Assembly: GCA_051294905.1 (NCBI GenBank)
Contig: CM119371.1
Location: 1,986,001-2,050,000, forward strand
Source: Botryllus schlosseri
Taxonomy: Eukaryota
Direction of reading: 5' to 3'
Length of the DNA: 64,000 nucleotides
Both the position numbers and the translations under genes were made by a program. The notes beneath the pieces were generated by a model. That model saw nothing but the letters and a program-made list of their open reading frames with translations, was not told the origin of the DNA and searched no databases. Below, in pieces: positions 6,512 to 31,886 of this stretch. Every line of letters starts with the position of its first letter. The stretch's first letter is position 1.

Positions 6512-7169
6512 TTGTAACATATCAAAAAGGTTCATAGTGCAGAACCTACCAAGGTTCTGTTGTGAACGCGAACCTCTAAATATCCGAGGGTCACACACAG
6601 AACGCGAACGTGAACCTCACGTTCACACCATCCCTAAATATAACGACAGAGAACAAGTTAGTCGAAAAATAAAACTAATCGTGACCGATGCAAGATGGCG
6701 TGAAACAGCGCTTTCGCTCGATTCTTGTAGTGACCACATTTCATGTCATGTCATTTCAGTCTATTTCATGTCACTAGAATAAGGGTGATTAAACCGACAG
6801 TGAAACGCCACCGGCGTCTTATAACGTAATAATGTAAGCTGCGTCGGGTGCTGCTATAATGTTAGAAGCGAATATAGTAGAAAGTCCACGTCTGTACACC
6901 TGTAAGCAGGTGCGCATACTACCGTAGTAAAATGCATAACAGAATTCACGCAAGAGTCGATATTGCTTTGTGATGATTTTGATATTGCTCAATACTGATT
7001 GGGAAGATAGGACTCCTAATTTCCTAACTAACTACATAATCCCTAGTAACGTAGTCAGACGCATAACGGAATTTACGCAAAATCGGTATTGCTCTGCGAT
7101 AATTTTGACCACTATGTTTCGATAATAACTTGCTTCCGAGTAATAAATAACATTCATTATACGTTAGAT

Positions 7170-8335: not shown

Positions 8336-8827
8336 CGTTAGATGATACTTTTCCTTGATATTCTATTATGTGTATTTAGGGCTAATGCAACATCACTATG
8401 TTGGCGACAGGCCTGACTTGAACACACTAATTTTGCGAATTAAACTTATCTCCCAACACGGACACTCAATGAAGAGCACCCTGGAGACCCACATAAATGC
8501 TCCACAATTCTTGACATATTTATTACTGAGCATATAATAAGCTGACAAAACCTATACTTGAGTACTCCGAAATGTACAAGTACTTTTACCTTTACACGAC
8601 GTTTTTGTAAAATGAATACTAATTTTGAATAAAAATAAAAATTATGTACTCAAGTAGGTTTTTGTCTACACACACCAACTACTCAAGTGTTTATGACACA
8701 GGAATGATTCATTAAGTATAGCGCAAGCTGGCCGAACCTATACTTGAGTACTCCAAAATGAACAAGTACTTCGCTATGTACTCCCTCCACGTAAAAAGTG
8801 ACTAGGTTTTAGACTACTTTATCGATT

Positions 8828-10620
8828 TTCGATGTTGCGCAAATACCGCAAACTTTGCTTTCTTTCAGAGCTGGCAACTAAATGCAAGACAGACTTTTCG
8901 CAAAAGTCTCTATTCTGAAAATTTTATCACGTTAATACTTTAAAAACTTATACTTGAGCCCTACAAAATGTACATGTACTTTACCTTTACACGACGTTTT
9001 TTGTAAAATGAATACTAATTTTATTGAAAAAATAAAAGATAAAAAAAGAGCGAAAAATTACATTTTATACCGGAACGCAACAAGACAAATCGTATGAATT
9101 TGTAATCTACTTATTCATGACACAATATTAATTCTACTTGTATACTTTTTAATATTTTGTAACAATTTTATTAGTACTTAACTAAAATTCGGAATATAAA
9201 CCTATCGAAAAATTTGGTAACAAATTTCACATAGGCTATGCATACAAACGAGGAAAGGTACATCAACGCGTGTTAACTAATTGTATTATGTAGCTTGTAA
9301 TTCATGCAAGTTTCGAAACTTCTACACTGAGTCTTCTAAAGTAGATAGAATCGAAAAAACTAATCGAAAATATTTACGAAGTTTGAAAGCGATATATTTG
9401 GGTTTTTAAAAATTATTCATACCCATGATTCGAAATACTTTTACCTAACTTATGTTTTCGAAATAAGATAACCGTGAAGTGTACAAATTTCGATGTTGCG
9501 CAAATACCACAAACTTTGCTTGCTTTCAGAGCCAGCAACTAAATGCAAGACAGACTTTACGCAAAAGTTGCTATTCTGAAAATTTTGTCAAGGTAATAGT
9601 TTAAAAACTTATACTTGAGCACTACGAAATGTACAAGTACTTTATCTTTACACGACGTTTTTTGTAAAATGAATACTAATTTTATTGAAAAAATAAAAGA
9701 TAAGAAAAGAGCGAAAAATTACATTTTATACCGGAACGCAACAAGACAAATCGTATGAATTTGTAATCTACTTATTCATGACACAATATTAATTCTACTT
9801 GTATACTTTTTAATATTTTGTAACAATTTTAGTAGTACTTAACTAAAATTCGGAATATAAACCTATCGAGAAATTTGGTAACAAATTTCACATAGGTTAT
9901 GCATACAAACGAGGAAAGGTACATCAACGCGTGTTAACTAATTGTATTATGTAGCTTGTAATTCATGCAAGTTTCGAAACTTCTACACTGAGTCTTCTAA
10001 AGTAGATAGAATCGAAAAAACTAATCGAAAATATTTACGAAGTTTGAAAGCGATATATTTGGGTTTTTAAAAATTATTCATACCCATGATTCGAAATACT
10101 TTTACCTAACTTATGTTTTCGAAATAAGATAACGGTGAAGTGTACAAATTTCGATGTTGCGCAAATACCACAAACTTTGCTTGCTTTCAGAGCCAGCAAC
10201 TAAATGCAAGACAGACTTTACGCAAAAGTTTCTATTCTGAAAATTTTGTCAAGGTAATAGTTTAAAAACTTATACTTGAGCACTACGAAATGTACAAGTA
10301 CTTTATCTTTACTCGACGTTTTTTGTAAAATGAATACTAATTTTATTGAAAAAATAAAAAATATAAAAGAGCGAAAAATTTCATTTTGTCCCGGAACGCA
10401 ACAAGAAAAATCGTATGAATTTGTAAACTACTTATTCATGACATAACAATAATTCTACTTGTACACTTTTTCACATTTTATAACACTTTAAGTAGTACTT
10501 AACAGTTTCAGTTTTAAATAAAATACGGAATATAAACTAATCGAAAAATTCGGTAACCCATTTCGCGTAGGCTATGCATACAAATGAGGAAAGTTACATC
10601 AACGCGTGTTAACTAGTTGT
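8828..10620. repeat. ~661-bp AT-rich tandem repeat, ~2.7 copies; partial units at 8543-8790
   Basis: tttcgatgttgcgcaaatacc recurs at ~8828, 9488 and 10149; the first two units are near-identical and the third is more diverged. Confidence 0.92.
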
Positions 10621-13600
10621 ATCGAGTTATCGAATGATTTTTTCCTTACATCAAAACAACTAGAATGCGTAACTACAATAAAAACGTTTCTAAATAAGCT
10701 CCAGGGCATTGTGATTATGCAGCATACCAAATTTCATCACACATTTCATGATGGAACCACTTTAAAACTAACGCAGTTCTATAGCAACATTTGCCTAAAT
10801 CTGTTTTCGGTAGCGTGTACATATACATAGTCGATCGTGACTTGATTATTAAATTATGACATTATTAGACCAGGGTTGTGTTGAAGGTTATTACGATACA
10901 AACAAACTTTTCAGAAACATTGTTATAAACATATCGATTTGTAAAACTATATTAACATGTCTGAAATGTTTTGATTGGGAAGATTAAGTCGTGTTCGTAA
11001 AAACCACGCAGCGTATTGTCGATATCAGGAAATATTTTATAAACGTAATTGTCTCCAGTAACCAAGACTAAAGATGAAACAACAATTTCCTTTGTTGAAC
11101 AATAACCGGTACAATACTTTATCATCGTAATCTGCGGTGAGAATTGACACACTTTCGCACATTACCCGGTGTCAAGATATCACACTAGGTGAATTGATAT
11201 ACCGCCGCTTGATTAATATCTAATCCGTTCGCACCATTTCACATACTTTGATCATTACAAAAGTAAATTTAAATATGTTTGCTATATGCATTCAATTCAG
11301 TTAGAAATGTCTGGTGCACAACAATCGTGATATCAAGGAAGTAGTTGCTACACTGTCATTCACTTAACGTGTTTTGCATTGTTGTTCATTTGTAGTATTG
11401 ATTGAAATTGTTTTTGAACCGCCAAATAATAATTCCCGACATGAAACCAAGTCGCTGAAAGTCGTTACCATCACAACGAAACAATTTGTATAATGTCTGC
11501 CGAATGTATCCTAGAGTTAGGTGTACTAGAATTATTTGTCTAACACATACACCGACAATACAATCGAAAATTTTAGCGTTGTCATTCACTAAAGTAAATG
11601 TCATCACAATACTCTACCACTAAAAGACGTTACTTACATGTGATTGAATCCCTAACAATTACCTCACTATTCCAAAGAAATTTTACTCACTCGATGGATA
11701 TGAAACAGCGTCGCTTAATCGGTCTATATCGTTTTTTCTAAAGGTAAATCATATCCATCCAATAGAAAACAATTTTCACTAGCTTGGTAATGAAACCGAA
11801 GTCTTCATTCAATATTTTGTTTGTGTCAAATACTTTGCAATAAACACACTGGAGTGGTTGAGCTTTACATCATCAGGTTGTAATCTGTAAATCAAGCTTA
11901 CATCCGATTTGTAACTGTATTGTTTACCTAACCGAGTTGTATGCACAGTTTGATATTTTTGTCATTTAGTGATTGTTGAACATACCACTTCGAAATACTG
12001 CGTTGATCATAATTTCCATCATCATGATAAGCGAAGTACATTTCTTTTGAATTCATAACCATCGGTTTTTCTATGACATGATAAATTATTGACAAGTTCT
12101 GGTTAGAAGATTGGCTGCATATCACGAAAAATAATATACCACTCATATTGAGATACTGTTACTCCATTCATCGGTATTTTTTCCGTTTTCGATTTTCAAA
12201 CGAGTAAAATTTATTACTTGAGTTTCTCCGCCTAATCTAAATGTAAACTCGCCCGTCTTTCAACAACAAACAATGTTAAAAAAGTATGCAATCAAACACA
12301 ACAAGTTTTACTGTAGGACACTAATTCTTATCCCACATCCCACAACCCATTTCTTACCGAAGACATATGAAATATATTCATGTTACACGAAAATATTCGC
12401 TATTCCCATGCTACAAACCCGTACAATGATTGGTGGTGCTTTCAAAATGTTTTGATACCTCAAGAACTTTATTGTCTCAATGGATGTTCATGTATCTTAA
12501 TAATCAAATAGTTCAACACAGAACTAGTACGAACAGAAACACCAGAGTTGTTTACACAAAAGTTTATATGTGTACACTATGTGAATACCGTGTGTAAATC
12601 CAGCACAATTGTGGTATCCACCCGAGTTTAGTAAACACAATTTATGACACCGAGTCGCGTCATCTTTCATAAGACAACAAACCAAGGCTTCAGGATATGT
12701 CCATGTCATAGCAATAAATCAGCTACTCCAACAACATAGTGCATATGTTTTCTAGTTACGATGCTTACATCTTACACACAAATCAATCTACTTTGCTAAC
12801 GAAAAGTGGTGAGTCATCATATGGTTGTCCTCACAACAATACAACTAAACATACTATCATACAAAATGTTCGTTATAGTTTGCACACCAATGATACATCG
12901 TACAAGTAACAAGTCTCGAGAATCCAGTTATTCAAAAAACGTGAAAGTATTTCTACGCCAAGTCGTTATGTTGACGAAAGCGTATATTGTAATATCATGA
13001 TCGATTTGCATTCGTTGGTCACAAACTGTCACTACTCTAAATAATTCTTTTTCACTCAAACACAAAAGTATACTTGTCACCATTCGTTTCATCAAGCGCG
13101 AGTTCAAGAAACTTACTTACTGCGACATGAATTGCTAATTTTATGTTGTGTAAATAGGTAATAATTAATTTTAGTAACACTATATCAACATCATCTAGTT
13201 GTGCGAATAGATTTACATGTGGTCTTGTGGTTTTAATCGAAGTACACAGCACGGTCTAATGTAGAGTCATCTCTATTGTACAGCAACTCGGTCATCGGAA
13301 TGTATGCATTAAAATTTAAACAACGATCTTGTTTCGTCACGCGAAAAATATGTTCACTATCGCGATACTCTACACAAGATGTGCAAATCCTTTTCACACT
13401 CGTAATAGTATACCAACGACTACCGGCGACAACGTTTACCAACGACACTAAACATACGATACCTACTCAAGTAAAATTTCCATTTTCACCTGGAGGTCAG
13501 TCGTTACCCGAGTAAAAATACCATTTTTCTTTGGAGATCTGGCGTTTACCCAGTGTAAAAATACATTTTCTCTTGGTTATCTAGCTTTTCCTAGAATAAC

Positions 13601-14446
13601 AAAACCATTTTCATTATAAAATCTGACAAACACACCTGACAATTGGGTATTTGTTGTATTGACGATAGTTTGAAATAGATTACAACGAACAGTGACGGAA
13701 ATATACACAGACCCCCGGTTTCAGAGTATACCCCCATCAGTCGTATCACATCAATATCATCGGTGAACCACATACAATATACTCTTGTACACAGAAATGT
13801 GTGTTTTGGAAATTGGACAATAGTTTTCGACATGTCCACGATGTCCAGGTTCGCGCTTTAGGTTTTCCAGAGTCAAAGTGTCTGAATAAAACACCGCCTC
13901 GACTTGGGTAAATGTTTGGCGCACAGATAACAGCGGTCGGAAATCGAGGAATTTATGTTTCCGTCGGGTTAACAACACCGGGTTAATTGTGTTTACTATG
14001 TTGTGTCGCTCTTTATTGACCGACACATACAGCCCCATGCAGTTTGTAATCGGAAACCCCGAGAAAGTGTTAACCGGATCCGGATATCAACTCTGAATCG
14101 ATAAACCACACGCCACAACCTGTGTCTCTATGAAAATAACAAGACATCACGCAAATAAAGTATACTTCGTGATTATTTACCCACACATCGTGATTTAGCT
14201 GAATATGTAGTTTAGAAATTCTGTTTATTAATGTGTATCAAAATCATCGTCTTCTTTGTACGGCGTTACTGTGTGTCTCATCCTCGTGGATTCGTGTTAA
14301 ATTGGACTGAAGCTTGATTTACACGGGACCGATCCTGCGACAACGGATTATGTGTGTCCAGCTACTTACCGAGGCTATACATAAAAGTGAAGCCGATTTC
14401 CCTGATCCTGCCATCAATCCGTAATATCTGACCACTGCATAGGGAC
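10070..14446. repeat. Left arm (~4.4 kb) of a large inverted repeat
   Basis: The ORF track mirrors exactly (coordinate sum 36197) with 22159..26127; 14031..14446 is the reverse complement of 16099..16529. Confidence 0.97.
13463..13590. repeat. Three degenerate ~41-bp tandem units (mirrored at ~22607..22734)
   Basis: tactcaagtaaaatttccatttt / tacccgagtaaaaataccatttt / tacccagtgtaaaaatacatttt, each followed by a tggagatc-like motif. Confidence 0.65.
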
Positions 14447-14501
14447 TGAAAGACACAAACAACATTTCTTTATTTTTTTCACACAATTTAATGATCACAT
14501 T

Positions 14502-15185
14502 TTACATCATTACACTGACATGGCTAGCTACATGTCTTGCGAGTCCATTTTTTCGCCTAAATCTTTTCGCACAAATATGGCATTCGTAGACTCTGATGTC
14601 AGCGTGAATATCCAAATGCGACTTTAATTGGGTCTTTAGATGAAAATCTTTTCCACAGATCGGACATTTGTGGTCTTTCTCATCTTTATGGATACCCATG
14701 TGTCGTCTGAGCGAGCCTTCTCGACCGAACTCTTTCCCGCAAATTTCGCACTTATGAAGCCTGGCGTTGACATGTGCATTCATGTGATCCTTTAAACGAT
14801 GGGATTGAGTAAATGCTTTTCCACACACCCAACATTTGTGTTTTTTAATGACAAAGTGAGTAGCCACGTGGTTGGTGAGGTCTATTTGTCGCGTGAATAC
14901 CTTACCGCAAATTTGGCACTCGTGGTTTTTATCGGTAGAGTGAAAAGCTTCGTGGGTTTTTAGATTATCTTTCCGGATAAATCTTTTTCCACAAATTTGA
15001 CACTCATAGTTTTTAGCACCGAGGTGGCCGCGTTTGTGTCTCATAAAACTACTTCTCCGGATAAAACTTTCGCCACAAATACAGCAGTGATGATTCTTTA
15101 CACCTGCGTGTGCATCCATGTGGACATTCAAATTATGCTTCGAAGCCAATTCTTTTCCACAGATCAAGCATGTAAACGGATTCAT
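14502..15185 (-). CDS. C2H2 zinc-finger protein, 8 tandem fingers (227 aa from the ATG at 15185; may have upstream exons)
   Basis: Eight CxxC-x12-HxxxH units with no stops; a tttttag acceptor just upstream of the ATG; AATAAA on the minus strand at 14469-14474. Confidence 0.92.
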   Translation of the reverse strand: MNPFTCLICGKELASKHNLNVHMDAHAGVKNHHCCICGESFIRRSSFMRHKRGHLGAKNYECQICGKRFIRKDNLKTHEAFHSTDKNHECQICGKVFTRQIDLTNHVATHFVIKKHKCWVCGKAFTQSHRLKDHMNAHVNARLHKCEICGKEFGREGSLRRHMGIHKDEKDHKCPICGKDFHLKTQLKSHLDIHADIRVYECHICAKRFRRKNGLARHVASHVSVMM

Positions 15186-16529
15186 GGTTAACTTGCACAC
15201 TAAAAATAGTTCCTGAATACGACAAAAATGTTAAGCAACTCAGAACTGATGAATAATCGCGAAGTAATCTTATAACATTTCGGTTATATCATTACGATTC
15301 TTAATTTATTGATTTGAACCGGTGAGTCTTGGATTCGAGCGCGCCCCGCGGGGTCAATTGCACCCCACCGAGTGGTTCCGAGGGTCGCACGAAAGACTGC
15401 TTGAATTTTAAATACCAAACCCTCTTTTAGTGTTGATACGTGAACTAAAACCATACGATGTATAAGCCAGACCGGGAATTCGTTTACTACCAAAGCTTCG
15501 TCATCAACATATTCCACGATTACACAGTCTATACATACCTCACATGTCTAATCCGGATTAAAACTAAAGTCAATATATCAAGTTTATCGTTAGAATTAAA
15601 GCCACAACATGTCACCGAACTTTATTTGGTACAATTTTCACATTATACATTATGCGATCTGTGGTTCAAATTGTTACGCGATGTCTTCGAAATCTATAAT
15701 TCATAAAACAAGTTAACCAATTCTCATGCTTTTTTCTATGAATATACCACCACCCATAAAAGGGTATAAAAAACAAGAAAACCGATAGTCGGAATTCAGG
15801 AAGACACCGTAATTGCATCCACTGATCAAATTAACTACACCGGATATTCTAAAATTTCTGTCTCAATCCGTAAATATATTTCCGCTCCGCATTTGGTCCG
15901 TGAAGAGAAATTATTGCTGTTGTATAGTAACTATTGTGTACTTACACCCTGAACCGATTCTTAAACTGACACAATGCGTCCGAGTTCTTGAATTCTATAG
16001 ACCTAGTTTTCGAAAAAAATAAGTTCCTCTCGTACATTTTACCGGGAAATGCCCCACTGATTCGTTGGACACACACATGATCCATTGTCGCGGCATCCGT
16101 CCCTATGCAGTGGTCAGATATTGACGTACAGCAGATTACGGATTGATGGCAGGATCAGGGAAATCGGCTTCACTTTTATGTATAGCCTCGGTAAGTAGCT
16201 GGACACACATAATCCGTTGTCGCAGGATCGGTCCCGTGTAAATCAAGCTTCAGTCCAATTTAACACGAATCCACGAGGATGAGACACACAGTAACGCCGT
16301 ACAAAGAAGACGATGATTTTGATACACATTAATAAACAGAATTTCTAAACTACATATTCAGCTAAATCACGATGTGTGGGTAAATAATCACGAAGTATAC
16401 TTGATTTGCGTGATGTCTTGTTATTTTCATAGAGACACAGGTTGTGGCGTGTGGTTTATCGATTCAGAGTTGATATCCGGATCCGGTTAACACTTTCTCG
16501 AGGTTTCCGATTTCAAACTGCATGGGGCT

Positions 16530-18137
16530 TAGGGTTGTCCATAATTTGGAAAATCTCAAAATTTATGCGTATCCATGTCTCATTCTATAGATTATAGTTA
16601 AAAAACGTCAATGAACCTGCAATAAGCTCACGGGAAAGTCGTTAACATTTGTCTAAATGCGTTTGAAAGTAGCTGCCGTAGAGTGGGCGTGTTTGCGACC
16701 ATAGAACGGCAAGCAGACTAGTAATCACGAAATCACGGCGTTTGATTAGCTAATCTGCTACGCTTCAATGATCACGACATTGGTGGCTTGTTGATCAGCT
16801 GGTAAAGGAATCGGCTAACGGCGGTGATTCTGTAAGCGCATTGTAGGTTGGTCCGCCAGTCATTATTTAGGATTAATTCAGAACATGTTGAGTAACGAAA
16901 CACATGATGAACAAAGAACAGCTGCTTCACAATATCTTTAAATACATGACATGATGGCGTATTGTGAATGTAACCGTTGTAGCCTGTATGCCTTGATTTC
17001 ATTGATGGAAAGCACAAAAACAAGCGGAAAAATATTGCAAAGGCGCTTATGCAAGTGGCAAACGAATTTCTAGTTTCAGAGGAGATGTATCATCATTGAA
17101 TACAAATATAAAGCTTGACATTGACACTACTTTGTCTGATCTTATTAGGCTGTTGTCGTGGTGAAGTCTTGAATGCTGTAAGGGCTGGATTAATCTGTCA
17201 TTTATGCTTGGCACTTGTCAGATTATTGCAGCATAATGAATCATACCCGCAAGTGCTGTCAAAGTCTTCAATGATGCCGCGAAAAGAGGTCTAAAGATGA
17301 GCACAGACTATGCTGGTAGGACCAGCAAAAAGACAGTTTGCTTGCATTGCTTAGCATGTCCTTAATGAATCTAAGATCATTACCGGCTGCATGACGACTA
17401 ATGCTTGAATCAAACCAGACATGGACATAAAAATGATGTATTGAAGCGGTGTGGTAGTTACACTCTTCTTCAGAAATCCAATGTAAGCTACCTGGTCGGC
17501 CCACATATCTTCTGAGCATACAGGATTGTGTCCAGAATCCATATCACATGGTATGCTGCACCAGTTTGGCGATGTCTAATGTACCTTACCTGCACCCAGA
17601 AAAACAGGACCACTTGGTGTAATCTCAAGCATATCAGATATGTAGGCTATTTCTGGTATCCATACATACTTCTATAAGTTCACAACCATTCGCTGTTTCA
17701 CCTCTGTCATGCCTGCAATGGGTTATTGTTGCACTAAAGCTATCGGTACTTAGTTTTAACACTAAAACATTCAATGACCAGATGTCTCAGTTTATTATTA
17801 AATCACCAACATACAATGCGCTTACAGAATCATTGCCGTTAGCGAACTTCTTGAACTAGTATAAGCACATAATCAGCAAGCCGCTGTGGTCGTGACCATT
17901 CAAGCATAGCTGATTAACCAATGAAGAGACATGATTTCGTGATTACTAGTCTTCTCGCCGTTCTATGGTCGCTAACACGCCCACTCTAAGGCAGCTACTT
18001 TCAAACTCATTTAGACAAATGTTAACGACTTTCTTATGAGCTTATTGCAGGTTCATTGATGTTTTTTATCAATAATCTACAGAATGAGACATGGATACGC
18101 ATCTTTGTTGAGATTTTCCAAATTATGGACAACCCTA
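16530..18137. mobile_element. Internally deleted hATm-type element A
   Basis: ~200-bp imperfect TIRs starting tagggttgtccataatttggaaaatctc; transposase fragments RHAAGNDLRFIKDML and NDAAKRGLKMSTDYA. Confidence 0.85.
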
Positions 18138-18713
18138 GTATGTACATGCAAGTTCCCTAGTCCCACTTATTACTCGTTTCGCGCAGTGTGCTTACAATAT
18201 TATGAATTAATTAATTAGCTAGAGCAACAGTATATATATTATTTATCGCCTATATTTAAATTCGCTCATTTCATTTCAGATCAAACTGCCGACATTGCAT
18301 ACGCAATTTACGCTCGGAAAATTTCACATTTCTATCACAACTATCGCGCTATGCACTTCACCTGATGATGCAGGTGAGTTAGGCTACATTTCCGTATAGA
18401 TTTGCATTATGCCGATTTTACAAGTCCATAAGCTGCTGCTTTTAGATATGTGATTTTAATAGCTAGTGCACTGATGCTTTTCCGATAGTGAATAAAATCT
18501 ATAGCTAAACCTATGTCTATGCTATAATTTATCTCCCATTTTAAAACGCTATGCCACCGTGGCTTGAAGCTATATCTTAACATTTCAGATCAGCGACAAG
18601 CACTTCCATCTAGCACTAATACCTTGCTTGTTGCGGTTTTATAACTATAAATCTCATTTCCACTAAAATTTCAACGAACTGCGCTCGCATAAAGAAATTA
18701 AGTTCATGAAGGG

Positions 18714-21700
18714 TAGGGTTGTTCAAAATTTGGAAAATGTTTGGAATTCTGCGTGTCCATCGCTTATTCTGTAGATTATTGTTAAAAAACAATAATGGGC
18801 TTGAAAGAAGCTCGCAGGAAAGCCGGTAATATTTGTCTAAATGTGTTTGAAAGTAGCCGTCGGCGAGTGGGCGGGGAATCGATGAAGTGGGCGGGCAAAG
18901 AGAAGCCATTAATCCTGATTGGTTGAAGCCGGTAATAATAAGCTAATGATTGGCTGAAAGACCGACTTTGTGAACACTGCTGGTAACGATTTTTGCGTGC
19001 TGTTGTGCAGTCGTTTCTGTTGGTGGCATTACAGATATGATATATTGCCTTTCTTAATGTTGTCATCAAGAGTCCATAGTACAACATCGCAACCGCCTAA
19101 GTTAATATCTACCTGCAGAAAGTGCTATGTATTGCACAGATGCTCTCGCTAGTTGAGATACGAATAAACTAGATGCATGTATCTTGCTACCTTCAACCTT
19201 TCCAAAAGATACTGACAGTGAGTGAAACTCAAAAATTTACCACCAGGAGTCAACAACTCGGTAGTACTTGTTATGACTGGTCGACGTCTCACCCATAAAC
19301 GAACACATATTACACTTTATATTCACATTTGAATGAAGGCGAAAAGCACTATTTACAAAATACATTAAAAAAGTACGTTGCAGATCAGTGTTGCATTGTC
19401 AGGCACAAGTTGCAGATTACAGGCTTTTGATTAGAGTTGACTTCCTGCTGTCTCCAACTGTCTTCCTATGCTGTTCTACAGCTTGAAGCAGACTGTCTCT
19501 TTGTCGTTCATTGTCAGTCAAGATTGCAGCACAGTCTGTGCTTAGCTTTACACCTCGTTCTGCGGCATCATTAACGACTTTGACAGAACTGATGTAGGAG
19601 CTCATTCTGGTGTAGGAATCTGATAAGTGCCAAACATCAACCGGTTGAGCTAGCCACGCCCCAGAGCATTCAAAAACATCAAATATGTACCAATGTGGCC
19701 CAATAAAATCAGACAAAGTAGTGTCCTTGTTGATGTGTACAGTTGCATTCAACGAGGGCGGGCCTCTCCTGAAACTTGAAGTTCGCTCTACCTGCAGGAG
19801 CGTCTTTGCCATATTTTCCCGGGTTTCATTGCTTTCACTCGGCGAAAACAAGGCATATACAGCGGTTTCCTCCACGATATACCAGTCATGCTTTAAAAGC
19901 TTTTGTGAAGCAGCTTTGGAAACTTGTTCATCATGTTCCTTGTAACTCAACATGTCCTGGATGAATCTCAAGTCGTTACCGGCTGCATCACGACCGATTC
20001 TGGAAGCAACCCAGGCAGGGATATAAAAGAGAACTAAAAATAAATTGAAGCGATGCAGCAGTTCCACTTCTTCAGATTTGTAATGTAACTGATCAGCCCA
20101 CATGAACATCTTCTGAGCATACAGAATTGTGCCCATCCACCTTGCATGGTGTGTTGCACCAGGTTTGTGATGATTTATATCTCCATCTGCACCGAGAAGA
20201 GCAAGAGCATTAGTCACACATTGTTTGTAGTCATCCCGTGTGAAGAAATCTTTTCTGGCGAGTAGTAGCTTGAAGTTCTCAACTGTCATTGCTGCTCGTT
20301 CTTTAAAGCATATAGGAATAGTAAGAGTCTTGAATTGCTGTTTTCTGTCAAGACTGCTCCAGCTCTTCTTAAGGTGGGCAAACCATGTGTTCTCTGGTCC
20401 GGTTGTTGCTTTTCCAAATAAACATTTCCAGACGTCTTTGACTACTAGCTCATACACATGGTGCGGACACGCATGGTAAAAAACCTACTTTTCTAGAAGG
20501 TCCTCAAGGATCTTCGCTGCACCCTTCTTCCAGCCGCTGTTGCTTGCTGTGGTGTCAAAAACCAAAGCTGTTACAGCATCTTGTATATCCCACTTTTTAA
20601 TTATGTCGAAAGTAGTTTCAGCTTGTGTCTGACCTGCCGCATTTTGTATCTTCTGAATTCCAAGTAGTTTTCCTTCCGAGTATTGAGGTTGACAAGATAG
20701 AACAATTGACAAAGCTTCATATCGATTTCCTAATCTATCCTCTGTGAGCTTTCCATCCCAATGAATGGCAACATGCTGTGGTCTATTTTCGGCAAATTTT
20801 TCCAAAATGCCCTGAGCTATTTCCAGGCGATTTGTTTCCCCTGGCTCTCTTCGTTGAAGATCTTGACAGGGAGAACATGGCTATATCTCCTCCACAAGCC
20901 TTAAAAATGCTCCCATCAGCATCATTGCATCGTTGTCAGTTACTTGCAATCGATCCAGAGCTTGGGACACATGCGTATTTTTCATTATATTTTTAGGTGC
21001 CATCAGTTTAATGGATTGGGTCGAGGTGCCAAGTCCAACATCAGCATCATAGTCAGAACTTGAACTCAAACTGTCACCCTCTTTTGAAGATGACGATGAT
21101 GCTAAAACAACATAGTCACAACTTGAGTCGTGTGAAACGTTTTCAACAGTTTGATCTGCAATGGCTGCTGTTTTCTTTTTGAGGTCTTTAGCCAGAATTT
21201 TGTCTCTTCCCAACATTATTGACTGGCGAGATTGCCGTTGATCTTCATAAAATGCAATGTCTTCAAGCTTTCTTTCATGTGATAGATAAATGTCATTTTT
21301 TATTGTTGTTATGGCATCTCTACTTCCAATATCCCACAGCTTGTCCAAATCATCAGTGAATTTTCTCCTCTTACCCTTGGGATCACTTTCCTGTTTCGGA
21401 TTCTTCTTCAGATCACGCCATCTTTCGTGCAGGTTTTGAAGTGATCGCACCACATGTGATTTCTGCATTGTCGCAATTCTCGCCATTTTCCACACTGTCA
21501 TTACATCATCCACCACCACAGTACATAGTTCATGAGTAGGGGTTGACTGAGGACAATGCTCTTTCAGATGCAGCAAGTAACTCATTACTTCTCGTATAGT
21601 AGGTAATCTCGAGCCACAGATGTAATCGCAAGTATATCCGACCAAGTACTGCTCAGATCTTGTTCTTCGCTGCGGCATGTGTGCACTGTGCAATCTTTCG

Positions 21701-22158
21701 CCGTTTTGCCTCTGCCATGACTGCACTATTGTTGCTCCAAAGCATAAACTACTGCTATCGACTCTGAAGCATTCAAAGAACACGTGTTACCGTACTACTA
21801 ATGACTCATCAACCCACAACGCGCTTGTACAGAACCACAACCGCTACTAACAGACTCTACTTCAGCAAAACAGACTTTCAATTTAGTAAAGCGAAGCTCC
21901 CGAATCCCAGTCAGCTGTTGCAGTAATCAGTGAAGCTTAGCCGATTACCCAATCAAGAACCGTGGTTTTGTGATTGCCCGCCTCTGCTGTCGGTTGCCCG
22001 CCCACTCTTCAACAACGACTTTCAAACGCATTTAGACAAATGTTAGCGGCTTTCCTGGGAGCTTCTTTCAAGCCCATTATTGTTTTTTAACAATAATCTA
22101 CAGAATAAGCGATGGACACGCAGAATTCCAAACATTTTCCAAATTTTGAACAACCCTA
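18714..22158 (-). mobile_element. Full-length hATm-type element B
   Basis: ~140-bp TIRs starting tagggttgttcaaaatttggaaaatg around a near-complete transposase gene. Confidence 0.88.
19417..21678 (-). pseudogene. hATm-type transposase (~750 codons) with frameshift(s) near 20800-20900 and an in-frame TAG at 20485-20487
   Basis: Motifs HWDGK, FDTTASNSG, ACPHH, HHARWM and VVNDAAERGVKL across ORFs 20881..21783, 20485..20805 and 19417..20457. Confidence 0.85.
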
Positions 22159-22166
22159 ATGGGGCT

Positions 22167-22610
22167 GTATGTGTTTGTCAATAAAGAGCGACACAACATA
22201 GTAAACACAAGTAACCCGGTGTTGTTAACCCGATGGAAACGTAAATTCCTCGATTTCCGACCGCTATTATCTGTGCGCCAAACATTTACCCAAGTCGAGG
22301 CGGTGTTTTATTCAGAAACTTTGACTCTGGAAAACCTAAAGCGCGAACCTGGACATCGTGGACATGTCGAAAACTATTGTCTAATTTCTAAAATACACAT
22401 TTCGGTGTACAAGAGTATATTGCATGTGGTTAACCGATGATATTGATGTGATACGACTGATGGGGGTATACTCTGAAACCGGTGGTCTGTGTATATTTCC
22501 GTCACTGTTCGTTGTAATCTATTTCAAACTATCGTCAATACAACAAATACCCAATTGTCAGGTGTGTTTGTCAGATTTTATAATGAAAATGGTTTTGTTA
22601 TTCTAGGAAA
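22167..22610 (+). pseudogene. Polinton A32-like packaging ATPase remnant (5' part near 16430..16529; mirror copy ~13590..14110 on minus)
   Basis: Walker B-like (F/L)TDDI near 22430, TVRCNL (RxN) at 22504 and FYNENGFVIL at 22576, in shifting frames. Confidence 0.5.
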
Positions 22611-22734
22611 AGCTAGATAACCAAGAGAAAATGTATTTTTACACTGGGTAAACGCCAGATCTCCAAAGAAAAATGGTATTTTTACTCGGGTAACGACTGA
22701 CCTCCAGGTGAAAATGGAAATTTTACTTGAGTAG

Positions 22735-23870
22735 GTATCGTATGTTTAGTGTCGTTGGTAAACGTTGTCGCCGGTAGTCGTTGGTATACTATTACGAGTG
22801 TGAAAAGGATTTGCACATCTTGTGTAGAGTATCGCGATAGTGAACATATTTTTCGCGTGACGAAACAAGATCGTTGTTTAAATTTTAATGCATACATTCC
22901 GATGACCGAGTTGCTGTACAATAGAGATGACTCTGCATTAGACCGTGCTGTGTACTTCGATTAAAACCACAAGACCACATGTAAATCTATTCGCACAACT
23001 AGATGATGTTGATATAGTGTTACTAAAATTAATTATTACCTATTTACACAACATAAAATTAGCAATTCATGTCGCAGTAAGTAAGTTTCTTGAACTCGCG
23101 CTTGATGAAACGAATGGTGACAAGTATACTTTTGTGTTTGAGTGAAAAAGAATTATTTAGAGTAGTGACAGTTTGTGACCAACGAATGCAAATCGATCAT
23201 GATATTACAATATACGCTTTCGTCAACATAACGACTTGGCGTAGAAATACTTTCACGTTTTTTGAATAACTGGATTCTCGAGACTTGTTACTTGTACGAT
23301 GTATCATTGGTGTGCAAACTATAACGAACATTTTGTATGATAGTATGTTTAGTTGTATTGTTGTGAGGACAACCATATGTTGACTCACCACTTTTCGTTA
23401 GCAAAGTAGATTGATTTGTGTGTAAGATGTAAGCATCGTAACTAGAAAACATATGCACTATGTTGTTGGAGTAGCTGATTTATTGCTATGACATGGACAT
23501 ATCCTGAAGCCTTGGTTTGTTGTCTTATGAAAGATGACGCGACTCGGTGTCATAAATTGTGTTTACTAAACTCGGGTGGATACCACAATTGTGCTGGATT
23601 TACACACGGTATTCACATAGTGTACACATATAAACTTTTGTGTAAACAACTCTGGTGTTTCTGTTCGTACTAGTTCTGTGTTGAACTATTTGATTATTAA
23701 GATACATGAACATCCATTGAGACAATAAAGTTCTTGAGGTATCAAAACATTTTGAAAGCACCACCAATCATTGTACGGGTTTGTAGCATGGGAATAGCGA
23801 ATATTTTCGTGTAACATGAATATATTTCATATGTCTTCGGTAAGAAATGGGTTGTGGGATGTGGGATAAG
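22735..23870 (-). pseudogene. Protein-primed family B DNA polymerase remnant, C-terminal part (mirror copy ~12330..13462 on plus)
   Basis: In the left-arm copy, SLFP (12397), LIPQELY, CTLC (12571), WYPPEF (12612) and FIRQQTKASGY (12666) occur in the expected order of SLYP...LCxxC...GTWxxxEL...FLKxKQExSGxP. Confidence 0.55.
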
Positions 23871-23936
23871 AATTAGTGTCCTACAGTAAAACTTGTTGTG
23901 TTTGATTGCATACTTTTTTAACATTGTTTGTTGTTG

Positions 23937-24928
23937 AAAGACGGGCGAGTTTACATTTAGATTAGGCGGAGAAACTCAAGTAATAAATTTTACTCGTTTG
24001 AAAATCGAAAACGGAAAAAATACCGATGAATGGAGTAACAGTATCTCAATATGAGTGGTATATTATTTTTCGTGATATGCAGCCAATCTTCTAACCAGAA
24101 CTTGTCAATAATTTATCATGTCATAGAAAAACCGATGGTTATGAATTCAAAAGAAATGTACTTCGCTTATCATGATGATGGAAATTATGATCAACGCAGT
24201 ATTTCGAAGTGGTATGTTCAACAATCACTAAATGACAAAAATATCAAACTGTGCATACAACTCGGTTAGGTAAACAATACAGTTACAAATCGGATGTAAG
24301 CTTGATTTACAGATTACAACCTGATGATGTAAAGCTCAACCACTCCAGTGTGTTTATTGCAAAGTATTTGACACAAACAAAATATTGAATGAAGACTTCG
24401 GTTTCATTACCAAGCTAGTGAAAATTGTTTTCTATTGGATGGATATGATTTACCTTTAGAAAAAACGATATAGACCGATTAAGCGACGCTGTTTCATATC
24501 CATCGAGTGAGTAAAATTTCTTTGGAATAGTGAGGTAATTGTTAGGGATTCAATCACATGTAAGTAACGTCTTTTAGTGGTAGAGTATTGTGATGACATT
24601 TACTTTAGTGAATGACAACGCTAAAATTTTCGATTGTATTGTCGGTGTATGTGTTAGACAAATAATTCTAGTACACCTAACTCTAGGATACATTCGGCAG
24701 ACATTATACAAATTGTTTCGTTGTGATGGTAACGACTTTCAGCGACTTGGTTTCATGTCGGGAATTATTATTTGGCGGTTCAAAAACAATTTCAATCAAT
24801 ACTACAAATGAACAACAATGCAAAACACGTTAAGTGAATGACAGTGTAGCAACTACTTCCTTGATATCACGATTGTTGTGCACCAGACATTTCTAACTGA
24901 ATTGAATGCATATAGCAAACATATTTAA
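23937..24928 (+). pseudogene. Polinton major capsid protein remnant (mirror ~11269..12260; third copy from 26282 split by a hAT)
   Basis: GEFTFRLGGETQVINF at 23944, NMSGILFF, and C-terminal DITIVVHQTFLTELNA at 24863 resemble Polinton MCP termini; many deletions. Confidence 0.45.
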
Positions 24929-27412
24929 ATTTACTTTTGTAATGATCAAAGTATGTGAAATGGTGCGAACGGATTAGATATTAATCAAGCGGCGGTATAT
25001 CAATTCACCTAGTGTGATATCTTGACACCGGGTAATGTGCGAAAGTGTGTCAATTCTCACCGCAGATTACGATGATAAAGTATTGTACCGGTTATTGTTC
25101 AACAAAGGAAATTGTTGTTTCATCTTTAGTCTTGGTTACTGGAGACAATTACGTTTATAAAATATTTCCTGATATCGACAATACGCTGCGTGGTTTTTAC
25201 GAACACGACTTAATCTTCCCAATCAAAACATTTCAGACATGTTAATATAGTTTTACAAATCGATATGTTTATAACAATGTTTCTGAAAAGTTTGTTTGTA
25301 TCGTAATAACCTTCAACACAACCCTGGTCTAATAATGTCATAATTTAATAATCAAGTCACGATCGACTATGTATATGTACACGCTACCGAAAACAGATTT
25401 AGGCAAATGTTGCTATAGAACTGCGTTAGTTTTAAAGTGGTTCCATCATGAAATGTGTGATGAAATTTGGTATGCTGCATAATCACAATGCCCTGGAGCT
25501 TATTTAGAAACGTTTTTATTGTAGTTACGCATTCTAGTTGTTTTGATGTAAGGAAAAAATCATTCGATAACTCGATACAGCTAGTTAACACGCGTTGATG
25601 TAACTTTCCTCATTTGTATGCATAGCCTACGCGAAATGGGTTACCGAATTTTTCGATTAGTTTATATTCCGTATTTTATTTAAAACTGAAACTGTTAAGT
25701 ACTACTTAAAGTGTTATAAAATGTGAAAAAGAGTACAAGTAGAATTATTGTTATGTCATGAATAAGTAGTTTACAAATTCATACGATTTTTCTTGTTGCG
25801 TTCCGGGACAAAATGAAATTTTTCGCTCTTTTATATTTTTTATTTTTTCAATAAAATTAGTTTTCATTTTACAAAAAACGTCGAGTAAAGATAAAGTACT
25901 TGTACATTTCGTAGTGCTCAAGTATAAGTTTTTAAACTATTACCTTGACAAAATTTTCAGAATAGAAACTTTTGCGTAAAGTCTGTCTTGCATTTAGTTG
26001 CTGGCTCTGAAAGCAAGCAAAGTTTGTGGTATTTGCGCAACATCGAAATTTGTACACTTCACGGTTATCTTATTTCGAAAACATAAGTTAGGTAAAAGTA
26101 TTTCGAATCATGGGTATGAATAATTTTGTAGCATGGGAATAGCGAATATTTTCGTGTAACATGAATATATTTCATATGTCTTCGGTAAGAAATGGGTTGT
26201 GGGATGTGGGATAAGAATTAGTGTCCTACAGTAAAACTTGTTGTGTTTGATTGCATACTTTTTTAACATTGTTTGTTGTTGAAAGACGGGCGAGTTTACA
26301 TTTAGATTAGGCGGAGAAACTCAAGTAATAAATTTTACTCGTTTGAAAATCGAAAACGGAAAAAATACCGATGAATGGAGTAACAGTATCTCAATATGAG
26401 TGGTATATTATTTTTCGTGATATGCAGCCAATCTTCTAACCAGAACTTGTCAATAATTTATCATGTCATAGAAAAACCGATGGTTATGAATTCAAAAGAA
26501 ATGTACTTCGCTTATCATGATGATGGAAATTATGATCAACGCAGTATTTCGAAGTGGTATGTTCAACAATCACTAAATGACAAAAATATCAAACTGTGCA
26601 TACAACTCGGTTAGGTAAACAATACAGTTACAAATCGGATGTAAGCTTGATTTACAGATTACAACCTGATGATGTAAAGCTCAACCACTCCAGTGTGTTT
26701 ATTGCAAAGTATTTGACACAAACAAAATATTGAATGAAGACTTCGGTTTCATTACCAAGCTAGTGAAAATTGTTTTCTATTGGATGGATATGATTTACCT
26801 TTAGAAAAAACGATATAGACCGATTAAGCGACGCTGTTTCATATCCATCGAGTGAGTAAAATTTCTTTGGAATAGTGAGGTAATTGTTAGGGATTCAATC
26901 ACATGTAAGTAACGTCTTTTAGTGGTAGAGTATTGTGATGACATTTACTTTAGTGAATGACAACGCTAAAATTTTCGATTGTATTGTCGGTGTATGTGTT
27001 AGACAAATAATTTTAGTACATCTAACTCAGTGGTTCTCAACCTTTTTTACCCGCGGACTCATCTCAAGCTCGCCAGTATACCCGCGGACTCAAGCTATAT
27101 ATTACTGATTTTTTTTTATCCAAGGGAGTGTAATACGGTATCAACAAAAAATGAGCTAAAATTGAGTCAAGGAAGCTTTCTTAAATCTGTCTTTCCACAT
27201 CTGTCGGCTTTGCAATTCAAGCAACTATTCAGTAAATGCAGACCACATCTCGATTTCCACTTATATTAGACAACTATAGATTGTTTCTGTGATTAGCACA
27301 TGTCCCTACGATTTGTAATTTCCCAAATAGTCTGTAAGTGAACAAGTCGCCATAATCAATCACCAGCACTCAGCGTATATCGCACCGGAAACCTGTGCAA
27401 TGTGCATACGTG

Positions 27413-27883
27413 CAGGACCGTAACAGCACTTCGTCAGCCCCCCCTCAATAACAAAACGTTGGTCTTGGGCCACACAGGCCTTAAACCTAACTTCTGGTGG
27501 GCTTCACCCCCAGACCCCCCTTCCGATACGTTTTTACCGCTACTTCTCAGCGAAATTTTTGTACCGTTCGTTCAGTCGTTTTGTTTCGAATAAACCGTGC
27601 GAGGCGTGAAAATATCCCATAATCATGATTGAATCGGTCGACATGATCGGGGATTGCATCTAGTTGTAAATTTTTTATGCTATCTCTGCTCATGCATTCA
27701 GATTTATCGGTCGAGCTGAGCGAGACGTTTCGGAACATGATATAATGATATAATTTTTCTAAAAAGTTGCATAAATTTTCAAAAAACACTCTATAATTTA
27801 TGTTAATTCACGAATAATTTTGGCCCCCCTTCGAGGTCCCCCCCTCAATTATGGGGGTTTGGTGTACGGCAGTTACGGTCCCG
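27413..27883. mobile_element. hAT-type MITE nested in 27028..29153
   Basis: TIRs caggaccgtaac / gttacggtcccg; TSD catacgtg on both sides. Confidence 0.85.
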
Positions 27884-28916
27884 CATACGTGTGTAGTGTA
27901 TAAAGAGCTGTCCCAGGGGTTTATACCTGGTATATTCTGTATGTGAATTGTTAATAGTGAACACGCGGCAATAAATTCCGAGTCCGGTCGTACTAAATTC
28001 AAGTGAATCCGACCAAAATTGTAGAGTTTATGACCGTGATAAAATTGCTTATGACAATTTTAGCAATAGGCTATACCTCGAACATAAATGTAGGGCATTT
28101 TGAAAAATTCCAGTTGGCGATAATTGGGGTTTTATACCTGGCGTGATTGGTATCAAACCAGGATGATGCGACAGATGTGCAAAGCATACCCGTTTTGCCT
28201 GTGATACTTGCAACCAACTGGTTTGCCCAAGACACAGAAAATATCAGGAGAACCAATAATGCTTGGAATGCTGATCAATTTGTAGTGGTGCTGTTTCGTT
28301 GTTCTTGCGTTTGAAATATACGTGGCCAAACATCGCTTGTTGAGGTATCTCTAATATTGCTTCCAAAACTACATTCACTGCAGTATAATTTATTAACTTG
28401 CAGGAATTTCGTATGCCCCTTATCAGCAAGAGGTAACGGCACAATAAGAAGCATATAGAAAGAGATTTAAACAAAATCCAAATTGGCGAAATATGACGTA
28501 ACAATGCAATGATAAAAAGGAACGGTAGCTGGCCAAAGTCAGCTGTACCGGTACTTCGGTAGTCATAATAAAGGGATAATAGAGAATCAAATTATACGAT
28601 ACTCAGAAGACGTTACACAGACAATTAGGGGAATATATTAATGGAATATTGAAAGATTGTATACAAACTCTTTATCCTTTTTATGGTGCCGTTAATTCTT
28701 GATAAGGGAAACCCGAAAAGTCGCCGAGGTAATAAATTCTACTGCAATGAATGTAGTTCTGAAAGCACTATTGAAGTTGAGTGCCGCCAGTCACATATTT
28801 GAGGTATCTATGCATTTTCTATGACAGCTATTAAGGTTACTAACATTTCAAAATGGGTATTTTGTAAATCACTCAGCCTAATTCTCAACTCGGAATTGGA
28901 CGAAACCGGACCAGTA

Positions 28917-28998
28917 CGGGGCTCATTCACTTTCGGACCAAAAAGCTATTTTCTCCGTAAGGCTGCAATGACTTTGGTCCGAAAGTGAACGAGCCCCG
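28917..28998. mobile_element. 82-bp hairpin MITE with TA TSD
   Basis: cggggctcattcactttcggaccaaa ... tttggtccgaaagtgaacgagccccg, flanked by ta/ta. Confidence 0.8.
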
Positions 28999-29419
28999 TA
29001 GGTCTGTCAATTACATGTTCCGAAATCGTATCGGAAGTGGAAGAAAAAGTGTGCCGAGCCGATTAAGTTACTGAAAATTCCTGTGTTCGCGGACTCACCA
29101 AGGACCTTCCGCGGACTCAAATGAGTCCGCGGACTCGGGGTTGGGAAACACTGATCTAACTATAGGATACATTTGGCAAACATCGTACAAATTGTTTCGT
29201 TGTGATGGTAACGACTTTCAGCGGCTTGGTTTCATGTCGGAATTATTATTTGGGGGTTCAAAAACAATTTCAATCAATACTACAAATGAACAACAATGCA
29301 AAACACGTTAAGTGAATGACAGTGTAGCAACTACTTCCTTGATATCACGATTGTTGTGCACCAGACATTTCTAACTGAATTGAATGCATCTAGCAAACAT
29401 ATTTCAATTTACTTTTGTA

Positions 29420-29935
29420 ATGATCAAAGTATGTGAAATGGTGCGAACGGATTAAGTATTAATCAAGCGGCGGTATGTCAATTCACCTAGTGTGATATCT
29501 TGACACCGGGTAATGTGCGAAAGTGTTTCAATTCTCACCGCAGATTACGATGATAAAGTATTGTACCGGTTATTGTTCAACAAAGGAAATTGTTGTTTCA
29601 TCTTTAGTCTTGGTTACTGGAGGCAATTACATTTGTAAAATATTTCCTGATATCCACAATACGCTGCGTGGTTTTTACGAACACGGTTTAATCTTCCCAA
29701 TCAAAACATTTCAGACATGTTAATCTAGTTTCACAAATCGATATGTTAATAACAATGTTTCTGAAAAGTTTGTTGGTATCGTAATAACCTTCAACACAAC
29801 CCGGTCTAATAATGTCATAATTTAATAATCAAGTCGTGATCGACTATTACAAAATCTCATATGTCAAAATCAATGTGTCAATTCATATGTTTACATCGTG
29901 AGAATTTTCAATATAACGCATGCGTTCGATTGTAA
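29420..29935 (+). pseudogene. Polinton minor capsid (penton) remnant; truncated copies ~24942..25370 and mirror
   Basis: TGYCSTKEI, NTLRGF, IFPIKTFQ (29691), then HVNLVS..YVNNN..PG resemble the penton pattern GxY..LLGF..IxPIxxIxIHCNLV..SYVN..PG. Confidence 0.5.
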
Positions 29936-29937
29936 GA

Positions 29938-30200
29938 AATGAATTCTCAACTACGTTGGTCAGACATTCAAATCCGGTATACTCAAATGTAATATGTTAA
30001 TCTCAAACCACACACCGAGTAGTATTTACTTTGGTTTATAAAATATACCGAGTAGTAATTACTTTATCTTACAGAATAGTAACGACTTTTACAGTTGAAC
30101 AAATAAAAAGATGATTTGGCGGTATATGACTACAACCGAACTTGCTATGGATTTTGGATTGTGGTGATTACTCGCGTAGTCTTGTCTACTTTTCATAAGG
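29938..30200 (+). pseudogene. Adenain-like cysteine protease remnant
   Basis: YDYNRTCY (30125) followed by DCGDY (30157) resembles the YN..Q..CGxYC catalytic-Cys motif; positioned after the penton remnant. Confidence 0.35.
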
Positions 30201-30269
30201 ATACTTTTTGCTTTGGTAGGGTAAGTTACAAACGGATTGACTTGAAAAGGCTTTTTTTTTTGTTTTAAT

Positions 30270-30730
30270 CTTTTGTGTATGGGAAGATGTTAAAATGTTG
30301 AGACGTAATACTATTTCCGTTCACTCGATTGCAACAAAAAATAACCTGATAGTTTGTTCAAGGTTTCGACAAATAGATTGAAATATTCCGCTTTAACTCA
30401 TCGCGTCACAAGTCGATCGCGGTATGTACAAGTGGTTGTCAAGTTAGAAATATTTACAACAGGTGCTATTTCATTGATTGATTCTATTGTGTGTAGTAAC
30501 ACATTAAAATATCGAGATAGTATTTACTGAAACTCTATTTGATAAACGGAAAACTCAGTCGTGAATAGAGTTGTAAGTTTGTGACTGGATCAAAGTTGGT
30601 AGTCATGTTTGTCAATCCTATTTCAATTCACATTATACCAAAGTCAAAATATTTCGTTTTTGATTATCTCGGTTACCTGTAGTACATCTGACGAACGGAT
30701 TTAAAGTTGGCGAATTACCAAAATGATTGA
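30270..30730 (+). pseudogene. Polinton retroviral-like (rve) integrase remnant
   Basis: SQVDRG..MYKWL (30406), NTLK, QSYFNSH and FKVGE (30700) follow the order VDxGxEF..WL..RTLK..YNN.H..KFKVGD. Confidence 0.55.
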
Positions 30731-31249
30731 ATATTATCGGGTTAGATATAGTTGGTATTGATTCTATAAGTGTTAAAACAGCGGCGTGTAATGTGTGAAT
30801 GATCCGGAAACGGAGTTGAAAGTTGGTCAATTCAAGGTCGCCGTCGTTGTGGTTCTATTATTCGTTACCCTTGTCAGTGATCGTGTGATTTTACAATTAT
30901 TTCACATCTATTTGAGTATGCGGTAACCGCACAAAGGATTAGGGTTAGGACGGAAATAAGTGACAATTTGTTGCTGTTCAAGTTACCGACACTGGGGGTT
31001 CTGTTAGTCGTTACTTATTAAATCTTACCAGCGAAATCAAGTTCTGTGACAAACTGATTACTAAAATTTCACCGCGTGAGCGATCGGTATGGTTATGACA
31101 CCAAGTCGTGAAAGATGACTATGTCTGAGGTGTTATCTTGTGGGTGATCGTAGGATTTTACAAATATTTCACACCTTTTTGAATTGTATGTGAACGCGGC
31201 TATTGTTGGTATTTGAATCGCCGTCTGCGCCGGCTCTGTGACAAACTAA

Positions 31250-31886
31250 ATACCTGAAAGTACGACTTGCCGCCGCAGCCATAAGAAACCTCACGAGAGA
31301 TACCTATTCCCGAAAGTACGAATTACGACCGCGCCCATAAGACGCAATAGCCGCATGCCGCCCCGCCATAAGACATAAGAGCCGCTTGCGGCCCCCGTCG
31401 TAAGAAATAAGCGCCACTCGCCACCCGAGGTTTCGTGTTAGCATCAATAGCCGCTCGCCACCCCGCCATAAGACGCAATAGCCGCATGCGACCGCACCCA
31501 TAAGAACACATGGCGAGTCACCACAGATCCCGTAAGAATACATGGCACATCACCAACGACGCCTATACCTGAAAGGGTGCCGTCACCAGAGATACCATAA
31601 GAAACAATGGCACATCACCAGAGATCACGTAAGAATACATAACAGGCACATCACCGACGCAGCCTATATCTGAAAGTACGACTCACCAACACGAGTTTTC
31701 ACGGCAGGTCATGAGCGAGCCCTATACCTGAAAGGGTGGGGTCACCAGAGATCCCATAAGAAACAATGGCAAGTCACTAGCGATAGGGGGGTCTAAAAAG
31801 GCGCATCACCACCACGAGTTTCCAGGCGCATCACCACCCCGCCCATAAGAACCCAATACGATGTGCCACCGATCGTATATACTACT
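31250..31886. repeat. Putative Polinton terminal region with short subterminal repeats
   Basis: Repeated ccgccataaga, cctatacctgaaag and gcacatcacca motifs, ending TATATACTACT (reverse complement AGTAGTATATA). Confidence 0.65.

Follow-up and report, generated by a model that had tools for sequence, protein, structure and literature searches.

A palindrome of Botryllus schlosseri in which several kilobases of one arm were probably copied recently over the other

Organization of the locus

The 64,000-nucleotide stretch analysed here (the window; Botryllus schlosseri, assembly GCA_051294905.1, contig CM119371.1, positions 1,986,001 to 2,050,000 of the forward strand) contains a large palindrome, whose arms of repeat DNA surround a low-copy loop with a zinc-finger frame and are interrupted on the right side by two insertions of transposable elements (TEs). 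The arms were compared by self-BLAST of the window and their segments are named from the outside in as E, D, C, B, A and I, with primes denoting the right side (Table 1). The main parts of the arms (10070-14038 versus 22159-26127) align without gaps over 3,969 bp, with 20 substitutions (99.5% identity), while the inner arms (14031-14449 versus 16096-16529) show 4 substitutions and one 15-bp indel, with a single substitution in their central 363 bp. The placement of these differences, together with additional copies of segments C and D lying further to the right, indicates that several kilobases of the left arm were probably copied recently over the right arm, in the interval between the two TE insertions.

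Table 1. Features of the palindrome and its right-hand continuation (window coordinates; TSD, target site duplication)
Feature	Position	Strand	Remarks
661-bp tandem array, left arm and flank	8827..10622		two complete units plus a partial one, with E as the inner portion
Segment E, left arm	10070..10823		putative donor of the overshoot; runs left into the tandem array
Segments D, C and B, left arm	10824..13713		putative donor; 2 differences from the right arm in 2,890 bp
Segment A, left	13714..14038		unconverted old arm; inner end holds the insertion target site in single copy
Inner arm I, left	14031..14449		outer 78 bp are repeat-family sequence, with 2 differences
Loop	14450..16095		low-copy DNA, 1,646 bp
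Open frame	14502..15230	-	242 amino acids, 8 C2H2 zinc fingers; PF00096, E 4e-42
Inner arm I, right	16096..16529		apparently continuous with the loop; a related repeat unit extends into 16050-16103; joint 16063-16198 in run X5
Composite insertion	16530..22158		5,629 bp; one 8-bp TSD (ATGGGGCT) around the whole
Segment A', right	22159..22483		unconverted old right arm
Young tract B'C'D'E'	22484..26127		3,644 bp, putatively copied from the left arm, with 6 differences
Microhomology (TTT)	26125..26127		3 bp, shared where E' ends and C'' begins
C'', third copy of C	26125..27028		identical to C over 888 bp; 2 differences in the final 16 bp by the TE
2.1-kb insertion	27029..29155		imperfect inverted ends CAG..CTG; 8-bp TSD (ATCTAACT)
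D'', original outer right arm	29156..29850		25 substitutions and 2 indels in 692 bp versus D and D'
Segment G	29851..31886		repeat-like DNA continuing the old right arm; 31-32-bp subterminal repeats; ends ACTACT

Divergence between the arms

The substitutions are very unevenly distributed, with 14 of them falling in 13714-14022 and the other 6 being scattered across the outer 3,644 bp. Segment A (13714-14030) differs at 14 of 317 positions (4.4%; 95.6% identity), as against 0.16% (0.06-0.36) in the outer part, where left and right arms show 2 differences in the 1,296 positions of B (12418-13713), none in the 904 of C (11514-12417), none in the 690 of D (10824-11513) and 4 in the 754 of E (10070-10823). 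This clustering is far from random: none of 100,000 permutations placed 14 differences within 320 bp, and a Fisher test gave p = 8e-12. These counts bear out what the initial annotation had noticed by eye, namely about a dozen differences in some 330 bp beside the 5.6-kb insertion (13710-14038 versus 22159-22490), a few differences plus a 15-bp indel in the inner 400 bp, and a handful over the distal 3.6 kb.

The shape of this divergence, which had been described as a peak beside the insertion, is actually a flat plateau followed by a step. The 14 differences are split 7 and 7 between the two halves of A (Kolmogorov-Smirnov p = 0.68), and the next 317 bp contain none. A step is preferred over an exponential decay (log-likelihoods of -102.1 and -105.6, respectively), but the preference is marginal, with 48 of 1,000 decay simulations matching the advantage of the step. 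A true divergence gradient was considered and, given the flatness of A, rejected with the same narrowness.

The old right arm and the duplicated segment

The structure does not stop at 26127, as had been proposed, because a copy of C (26125-27028, C'') and an older copy of D (29156-29847, D'') lie beyond this position. D'' is 3.6% diverged from the left arm (96.1% identity), the same level as that of A (25/692 and 14/317, respectively; Fisher p = 0.61), which indicates that about 4% is the background age of the arm duplication. Since D'' is located 7 kb from the 5.6-kb insertion, the plateau in A is leftover old divergence and not a local peak. At a rate of about 4%, the probability of finding only 2 differences in the 2,890 bp of B, C and D would be 2e-47, that of none in 888 bp of C'' would be 3e-16, and that of one in the 363 bp of the inner core would be 7e-6. 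The old right arm thus had the order A'-B-C-TE-D''-G and was about 4% diverged, and B'C'D'E'C'' is young.

The old part of the right arm lacks E-F. E' reaches 754 bp beyond the old D''/G boundary, and the 904 bp of C are duplicated around it, E' and C'' being connected by a 3-bp microhomology, a match so short that it can also arise by chance. On the left, E runs on into the tandem array, whereas E' stops at the microhomology, meaning that E' is the copy and that the direction was left to right. Moreover, the TSD of the insertion at 27029 retains the old right-arm base, while C' carries the left-arm base at that position, and identity extends to within 16 bp of this unique anchor (2 differences in 300 bp, p = 6e-4). 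Rewriting from the left arm is demonstrated for D', E' and the end of C', and is extended to B' by parsimony. The event took place at roughly 4% of the age of the duplication (range about 1.5-9%). Of the 4 differences in E, comparison with the tandem units assigns one derived change to the left arm and three to the right, so that either some time has elapsed since copying or the synthesis was error-prone.

The tandem array has a history of its own. Over 661 positions, 20 differences separate units 1 and 2, 16 of them in the first 220 bp, the 3' parts being far closer than the 5' parts, a pattern that suggests unequal exchange. In addition to the 661-bp units, shorter partial units are found in 8539-10622.

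The repeat family and shared rare alleles

From a list of 24 sequencing runs, contigs of X1, X5 and X6, as well as RNA reads of X23, were mapped onto 14450-26250, G being outside the mapped stretch. Summed contig depth, which is not a copy number, amounted in X1 to 144,000-410,000 in arm bins against 165-371 in loop bins, and in X5 to 86,000-338,000 against 238-1,521, the arms exceeding the loop hundreds of times in all three runs. The arms, E included, are clearly a very abundant non-coding repeat. Searching for a 20-nucleotide arm pattern in metagenome contigs returned five loci, all of which matched over only 20-22 bp and represent chance.

Among the variant positions, 40 of 634 were listed, including 14 in the right arm, and at each of these 14 sites 98-100% of the X1 depth carries another letter than the window. 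Both arms share the same rare window allele at 13 of the 14 sites, and C'' does so at 5 of 5. At position 25208, the sole listed site covered by D'', the family allele is retained in D'' (1 of 1). The strict tests for shared derived states are only this site and the TSD base described above.

Inner arms and loop

The inner core behaves differently from the rest of the arms. Its depth in X1 is far lower (1,427) and 54 X1 contigs depart from the window sequence at 16452, meaning that it is not typical family DNA. On the left, the core (14109-14446, 338 bp) shows 1 substitution and a 15-bp deletion and stops abruptly 52 bp beyond the stop codon of the zinc-finger frame. Given this abrupt left end and the apparent continuity of the right side with the loop, the inner core is probably a second, independent young copy, produced from right to left, that lengthened the palindrome into loop DNA.

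The eight-finger frame apparently consists of a single exon, and relatives 7-9% diverged from it are present in the sequencing runs, meaning that it is a member of a gene family. At the listed sites, X1 lacks the window's zinc-finger alleles. RNA reads of X23 (6% of the run) gave a loop depth of 0-0.27, which is uninformative on expression.

A model for the overwriting of the right arm

The arms are inverted copies of one very abundant repeat, probably corresponding to the two halves of one old palindromic element. They drifted to about 4% divergence, and the right arm received two TE insertions. The likeliest mechanism for what followed would be repair of a break or gap in the right arm, with the left arm serving as template for a long tract of synthesis. 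Strand invasion by one end near 13713 may have led to outward copying over 3.6 kb, beyond the limit of the shared sequence, and the other end, by the 27029 insertion, may have been extended inwards by about 0.9 kb. Both new strands would then have been joined via the 3-bp microhomology and not by annealing, leaving C duplicated. The plateau in A would be the piece reached neither by this tract nor by that of the inner core. The product fits long-tract gene conversion with non-canonical termination. An equivalent product would result from a replication fork with three template switches, or from two successive events, conversion of B-C and then an independent overshoot.

Several observations weigh against this model. 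The 0.9 kb of homology between C' and C'' would have allowed clean annealing, and the shared rare alleles may have been inherited if the arms were identical at insertion. The step is preferred only marginally over decay, as mentioned above. E is more different than B, C and D together (4/754 versus 2/2,890; p = 0.019, uncorrected), which is unexpected for a single event. Residual differences lie beside every heterology, as a steady-state conversion model expects: they extend no further than 29 bp on the inner and 317 bp on the outer side of the 5.6-kb insertion, 27 bp from the loop and 16 bp from the second TE, and they include all of D''. Finally, no ancestral haplotype was seen, and the junction at 26127 is absent among the 15 joints, 24 loose ends and 24 pieces listed (145, 2,455 and 99,989 more of each exist, respectively).

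Alternative explanations

Continuous exchange as in Y-chromosome palindromes, with frequent short conversions that fail next to heterologies and with the E'C'' duplication as a separate late accident, is considered unlikely. Mammalian Y palindromes are described as having arms more than 99.9% alike, at a steady state between mutation and conversion (PMC8600007), and the locus resembles mammalian Y and X palindromes in its inverted arms, its gene-bearing unique spacer and the transfer of alleles from arm to arm (PMC8600007). The positions of the residual differences, the only marginal rejection of decay and the requirement for at least two tracts (inner core and B-C) are all in line with a steady state. 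However, identity at the locus is 99.5% overall, 95.6% in A and 96.1% in D'', and not above 99.9% throughout as in the palindromes of PMC8600007; in addition, its arms are non-coding repeat DNA for which two or three episodic events suffice. Unconverted sequence borders one insertion over 16 bp and the other over 317 bp, A shows no slope and has kept the full old divergence, and D' and E' exist only through one multi-kilobase copy.

A control for exchange of this kind is provided by another inverted pair of the window (36819-41797 and 44827-48979), whose members are only 3 kb apart. They are copies, in opposite orientation, of a TE of 4-5 kb whose inverted ends read CCCAGCAAACAC and which is flanked by duplications of 2 bp, and they differ in 220 of 4,049 columns (5.4%), none of 15 bins falling below 2.6% divergence. 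The absence of homogenisation in this pair indicates that an inverted arrangement alone does not homogenise sequences at this site. Of the arm-to-arm conversion proposed in the initial annotation, the copying between arms is upheld by the rare alleles shared at 13 of 14 sites, but its Y-like form, an ongoing homogenisation fading towards the insertion, is not supported, given the equal divergence of D'', the stepwise edge, the identity reaching within 16 bp of the second insertion and the overshoot with its microhomology junction.

It is improbable that the distal identity and the junction were created during assembly, through consensus collapse, mis-polishing, a chimeric read or the joining of haplotypes. 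The very high copy number of the arms would favour such errors, no read or contig among those listed spans 26127, and the lack of the window's zinc-finger alleles in X1 suggests that the source haplotype was probably not sampled. For this last reason, and since the junction is not among the listed rows, the contigs neither confirm nor refute it. Against an artefact, the 6 distal differences are all substitutions within an ungapped alignment of 3,969 bp, with new changes on both arms in E, and identity reaches within 16 bp of the unique anchor. Mis-polishing would pull the arms towards family alleles, whereas they share rare ones; the 3-bp overlap is too short for an assembler to use, and the long frames nearby (602 and 242 amino acids) are intact.

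The great abundance of the repeat family, and the chimeric Galileo copies known from Drosophila (PMC3573991), give some ground for viewing the arms as a mosaic of separate family copies, produced either by nesting of a young palindromic element within an older one or by conversion from third copies elsewhere in the genome, but we regard this as quite improbable. Neither 10070 nor 26127 shows a terminus or a target duplication, and the left side simply continues into the tandem array; the 13 sites at which 98-100% of the family depth differs require the template to be the locus itself or a very rare subfamily. For the same lack of a terminus and of a TSD, a reading of the arms as terminal inverted repeats (TIRs) of a young insertion bounded by 10070 and 26127 was rejected. 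The mosaic of two diverged element copies offered in the initial annotation survives only in the sense that the right arm now mixes its old self with the left arm.

Purifying selection as the cause of the similarity in B-D and in the inner core, which might for instance regulate the intact eight-finger frame of the loop or form a hairpin RNA, is hardly credible: it is largely refuted by D'' and A, equally near the gene yet diverged, it is unable to give 99.9% identity over 2.9 kb of non-coding repeat, none of 59 short frames from the arms, the remainder of the loop and G reached the Pfam cut-off (2 weak hits fell below it), and the single Rfam match in 8000-32000 (E 0.9, attributable to chance) lies outside the arms.

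Comparison with known repair products

Overwriting by long-tract repair has precedents in experimental systems. Long conversion tracts that end outside homology are reported to show obligatory microhomology or nucleotide addition at their ends (Hartlerode et al. 2016, PMC5104497), and in Caenorhabditis elegans duplications of about 1 kb with microhomology are ascribed to polymerase-theta joining of failed intermediates of synthesis-dependent strand annealing (PMC8654963). The locus shares with these products (PMC5104497, PMC8654963) the acquisition of several kilobases from a homologous donor, an end beyond homology, a short microhomology and a duplication of about 1 kb. Those cases were obtained in reporter or mutant experiments with the sister chromatid as donor (PMC5104497, PMC8654963), whereas the present product arose naturally and was inherited, its donor is the opposite arm of an inverted repeat, and the break that started it is one that we infer.

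Among TEs, the closest parallel is Galileo of Drosophila mojavensis (P superfamily), for which extension of the TIRs was proposed to occur through repair copying past the TIR end (PMC3573991). Common features are long, foldback-like inverted arms that grow by overshoot, tandem repeats within the arms and chimeric copies (PMC3573991). Unlike Galileo, whose TIRs are given as up to 1.26 kb and extend inwards (PMC3573991), the arms described here exceed 4 kb and were extended outwards and probably inwards too, and a remnant of the old diverged arm is preserved at the locus, which dates the event. The locus is a clear natural example of a known repair process and not a new kind of element. A literature search covering listed titles and abstract openings, in a collection with few subscription papers, yielded no comparable repair scar in a TE palindrome and no giant palindromic Polinton derivatives.

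The value of the locus lies in the coexistence of old and overwritten versions of one arm segment, so that a single sequence reveals in which direction, how far and between which end points the copying ran, and how old the event is in relative terms. It also cautions against taking near-identity between the arms of large inverted repeats as proof of recent insertion or continuous conversion. Taken alone, it is one example of known repair chemistry, and its importance would be greater if the pattern generalised across an abundant palindromic family.

Possible Maverick-type origin of the arms

Maverick/Polinton elements are described as bearing the end motif (AGT)2//(ACT)2 (PMC8097293). The old right arm is about 5.7 kb long and finishes, in G, with GC-richer tandem repeats of 31-32 bp and with ACTACT at 31881-31886, which matches this motif, a hexamer that alone is not rare. 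No mirror copy of G was detected on the left, nor any similarity to positions 1-16529 of the window at E 0.5. A left AGTAGT end matching that of G is likewise missing from the window, its loss by decay being possible, and so is a left end bearing the right-flank hexamer, as a 6-bp TSD would require. The G end pattern had no match in viral contigs.

In its very high-copy arms devoid of core genes, inverted around a 1-2-kb loop with a small gene, the locus resembles a palindromic Maverick-ended element; it departs from one in lacking the left AGTAGT and the 6-bp TSD and in having low-copy zinc-finger DNA as its loop. On balance we lean towards a decayed palindromic Maverick-ended element, without assigning the locus to that family. 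A broader proposal, which we put forward only tentatively and hold to be rather doubtful, is that this is an aged Maverick-ended palindrome with a captured zinc-finger gene, belonging to a kind of element that re-homogenises its arms by episodic, multi-kilobase break repair from arm to arm, pulling in loop and flank. If this were true, the family copies would serve as a natural assay, across the genome, of how far germline repair tracts extend and how they end; arm identity would not be an insertion clock, and the process could yield new palindromic subfamilies with host genes.

Transposable elements of the window

The 5.6-kb insertion is composed of a TIR element at 16530-18137, a spacer of 576 bp and a second TIR element at 18714-22158, the latter with a transposase-like frame on the minus strand that is broken by two stops. 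The two elements differ, their ends being about 75-80% alike, and share a single 8-bp TSD, in the manner of a composite or macro-transposon. The spacer has a contig depth of 14,000-15,000 in X1 and X5, indicating that it is a repeat or that the composite has spread. Elements of the hATm group have the termini TAGGGTG..CACCCTA (PMC6004678) and TSDs of 8 or 9 bp; the termini of both TIR elements (TAGGGTT..AACCCTA) match this motif at 6 of 7 positions, the TSD around the composite is 8 bp long, and none of the 3 frame pieces gave a Pfam hAT match. A further fragment of the transposase type found in the 18714-22158 element is located at 54264-55088.

The 2.1-kb insertion, which we take to be hAT-like, contains an 86-bp hairpin at 28915-29000 with a weak, miRNA-like Rfam match (E 0.9). 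To the left of the palindrome, positions 4525-6333 hold an uninterrupted frame of 602 amino acids for a hAT/SPIN-type transposase (PF18658 above the cut-off, PF05699 just below it). Broken reverse transcriptase frames with RVT_1 matches, presumably non-LTR (lacking long terminal repeats) and Penelope-like, are found at 473-1794, 34838-36532 and 50053-51516.

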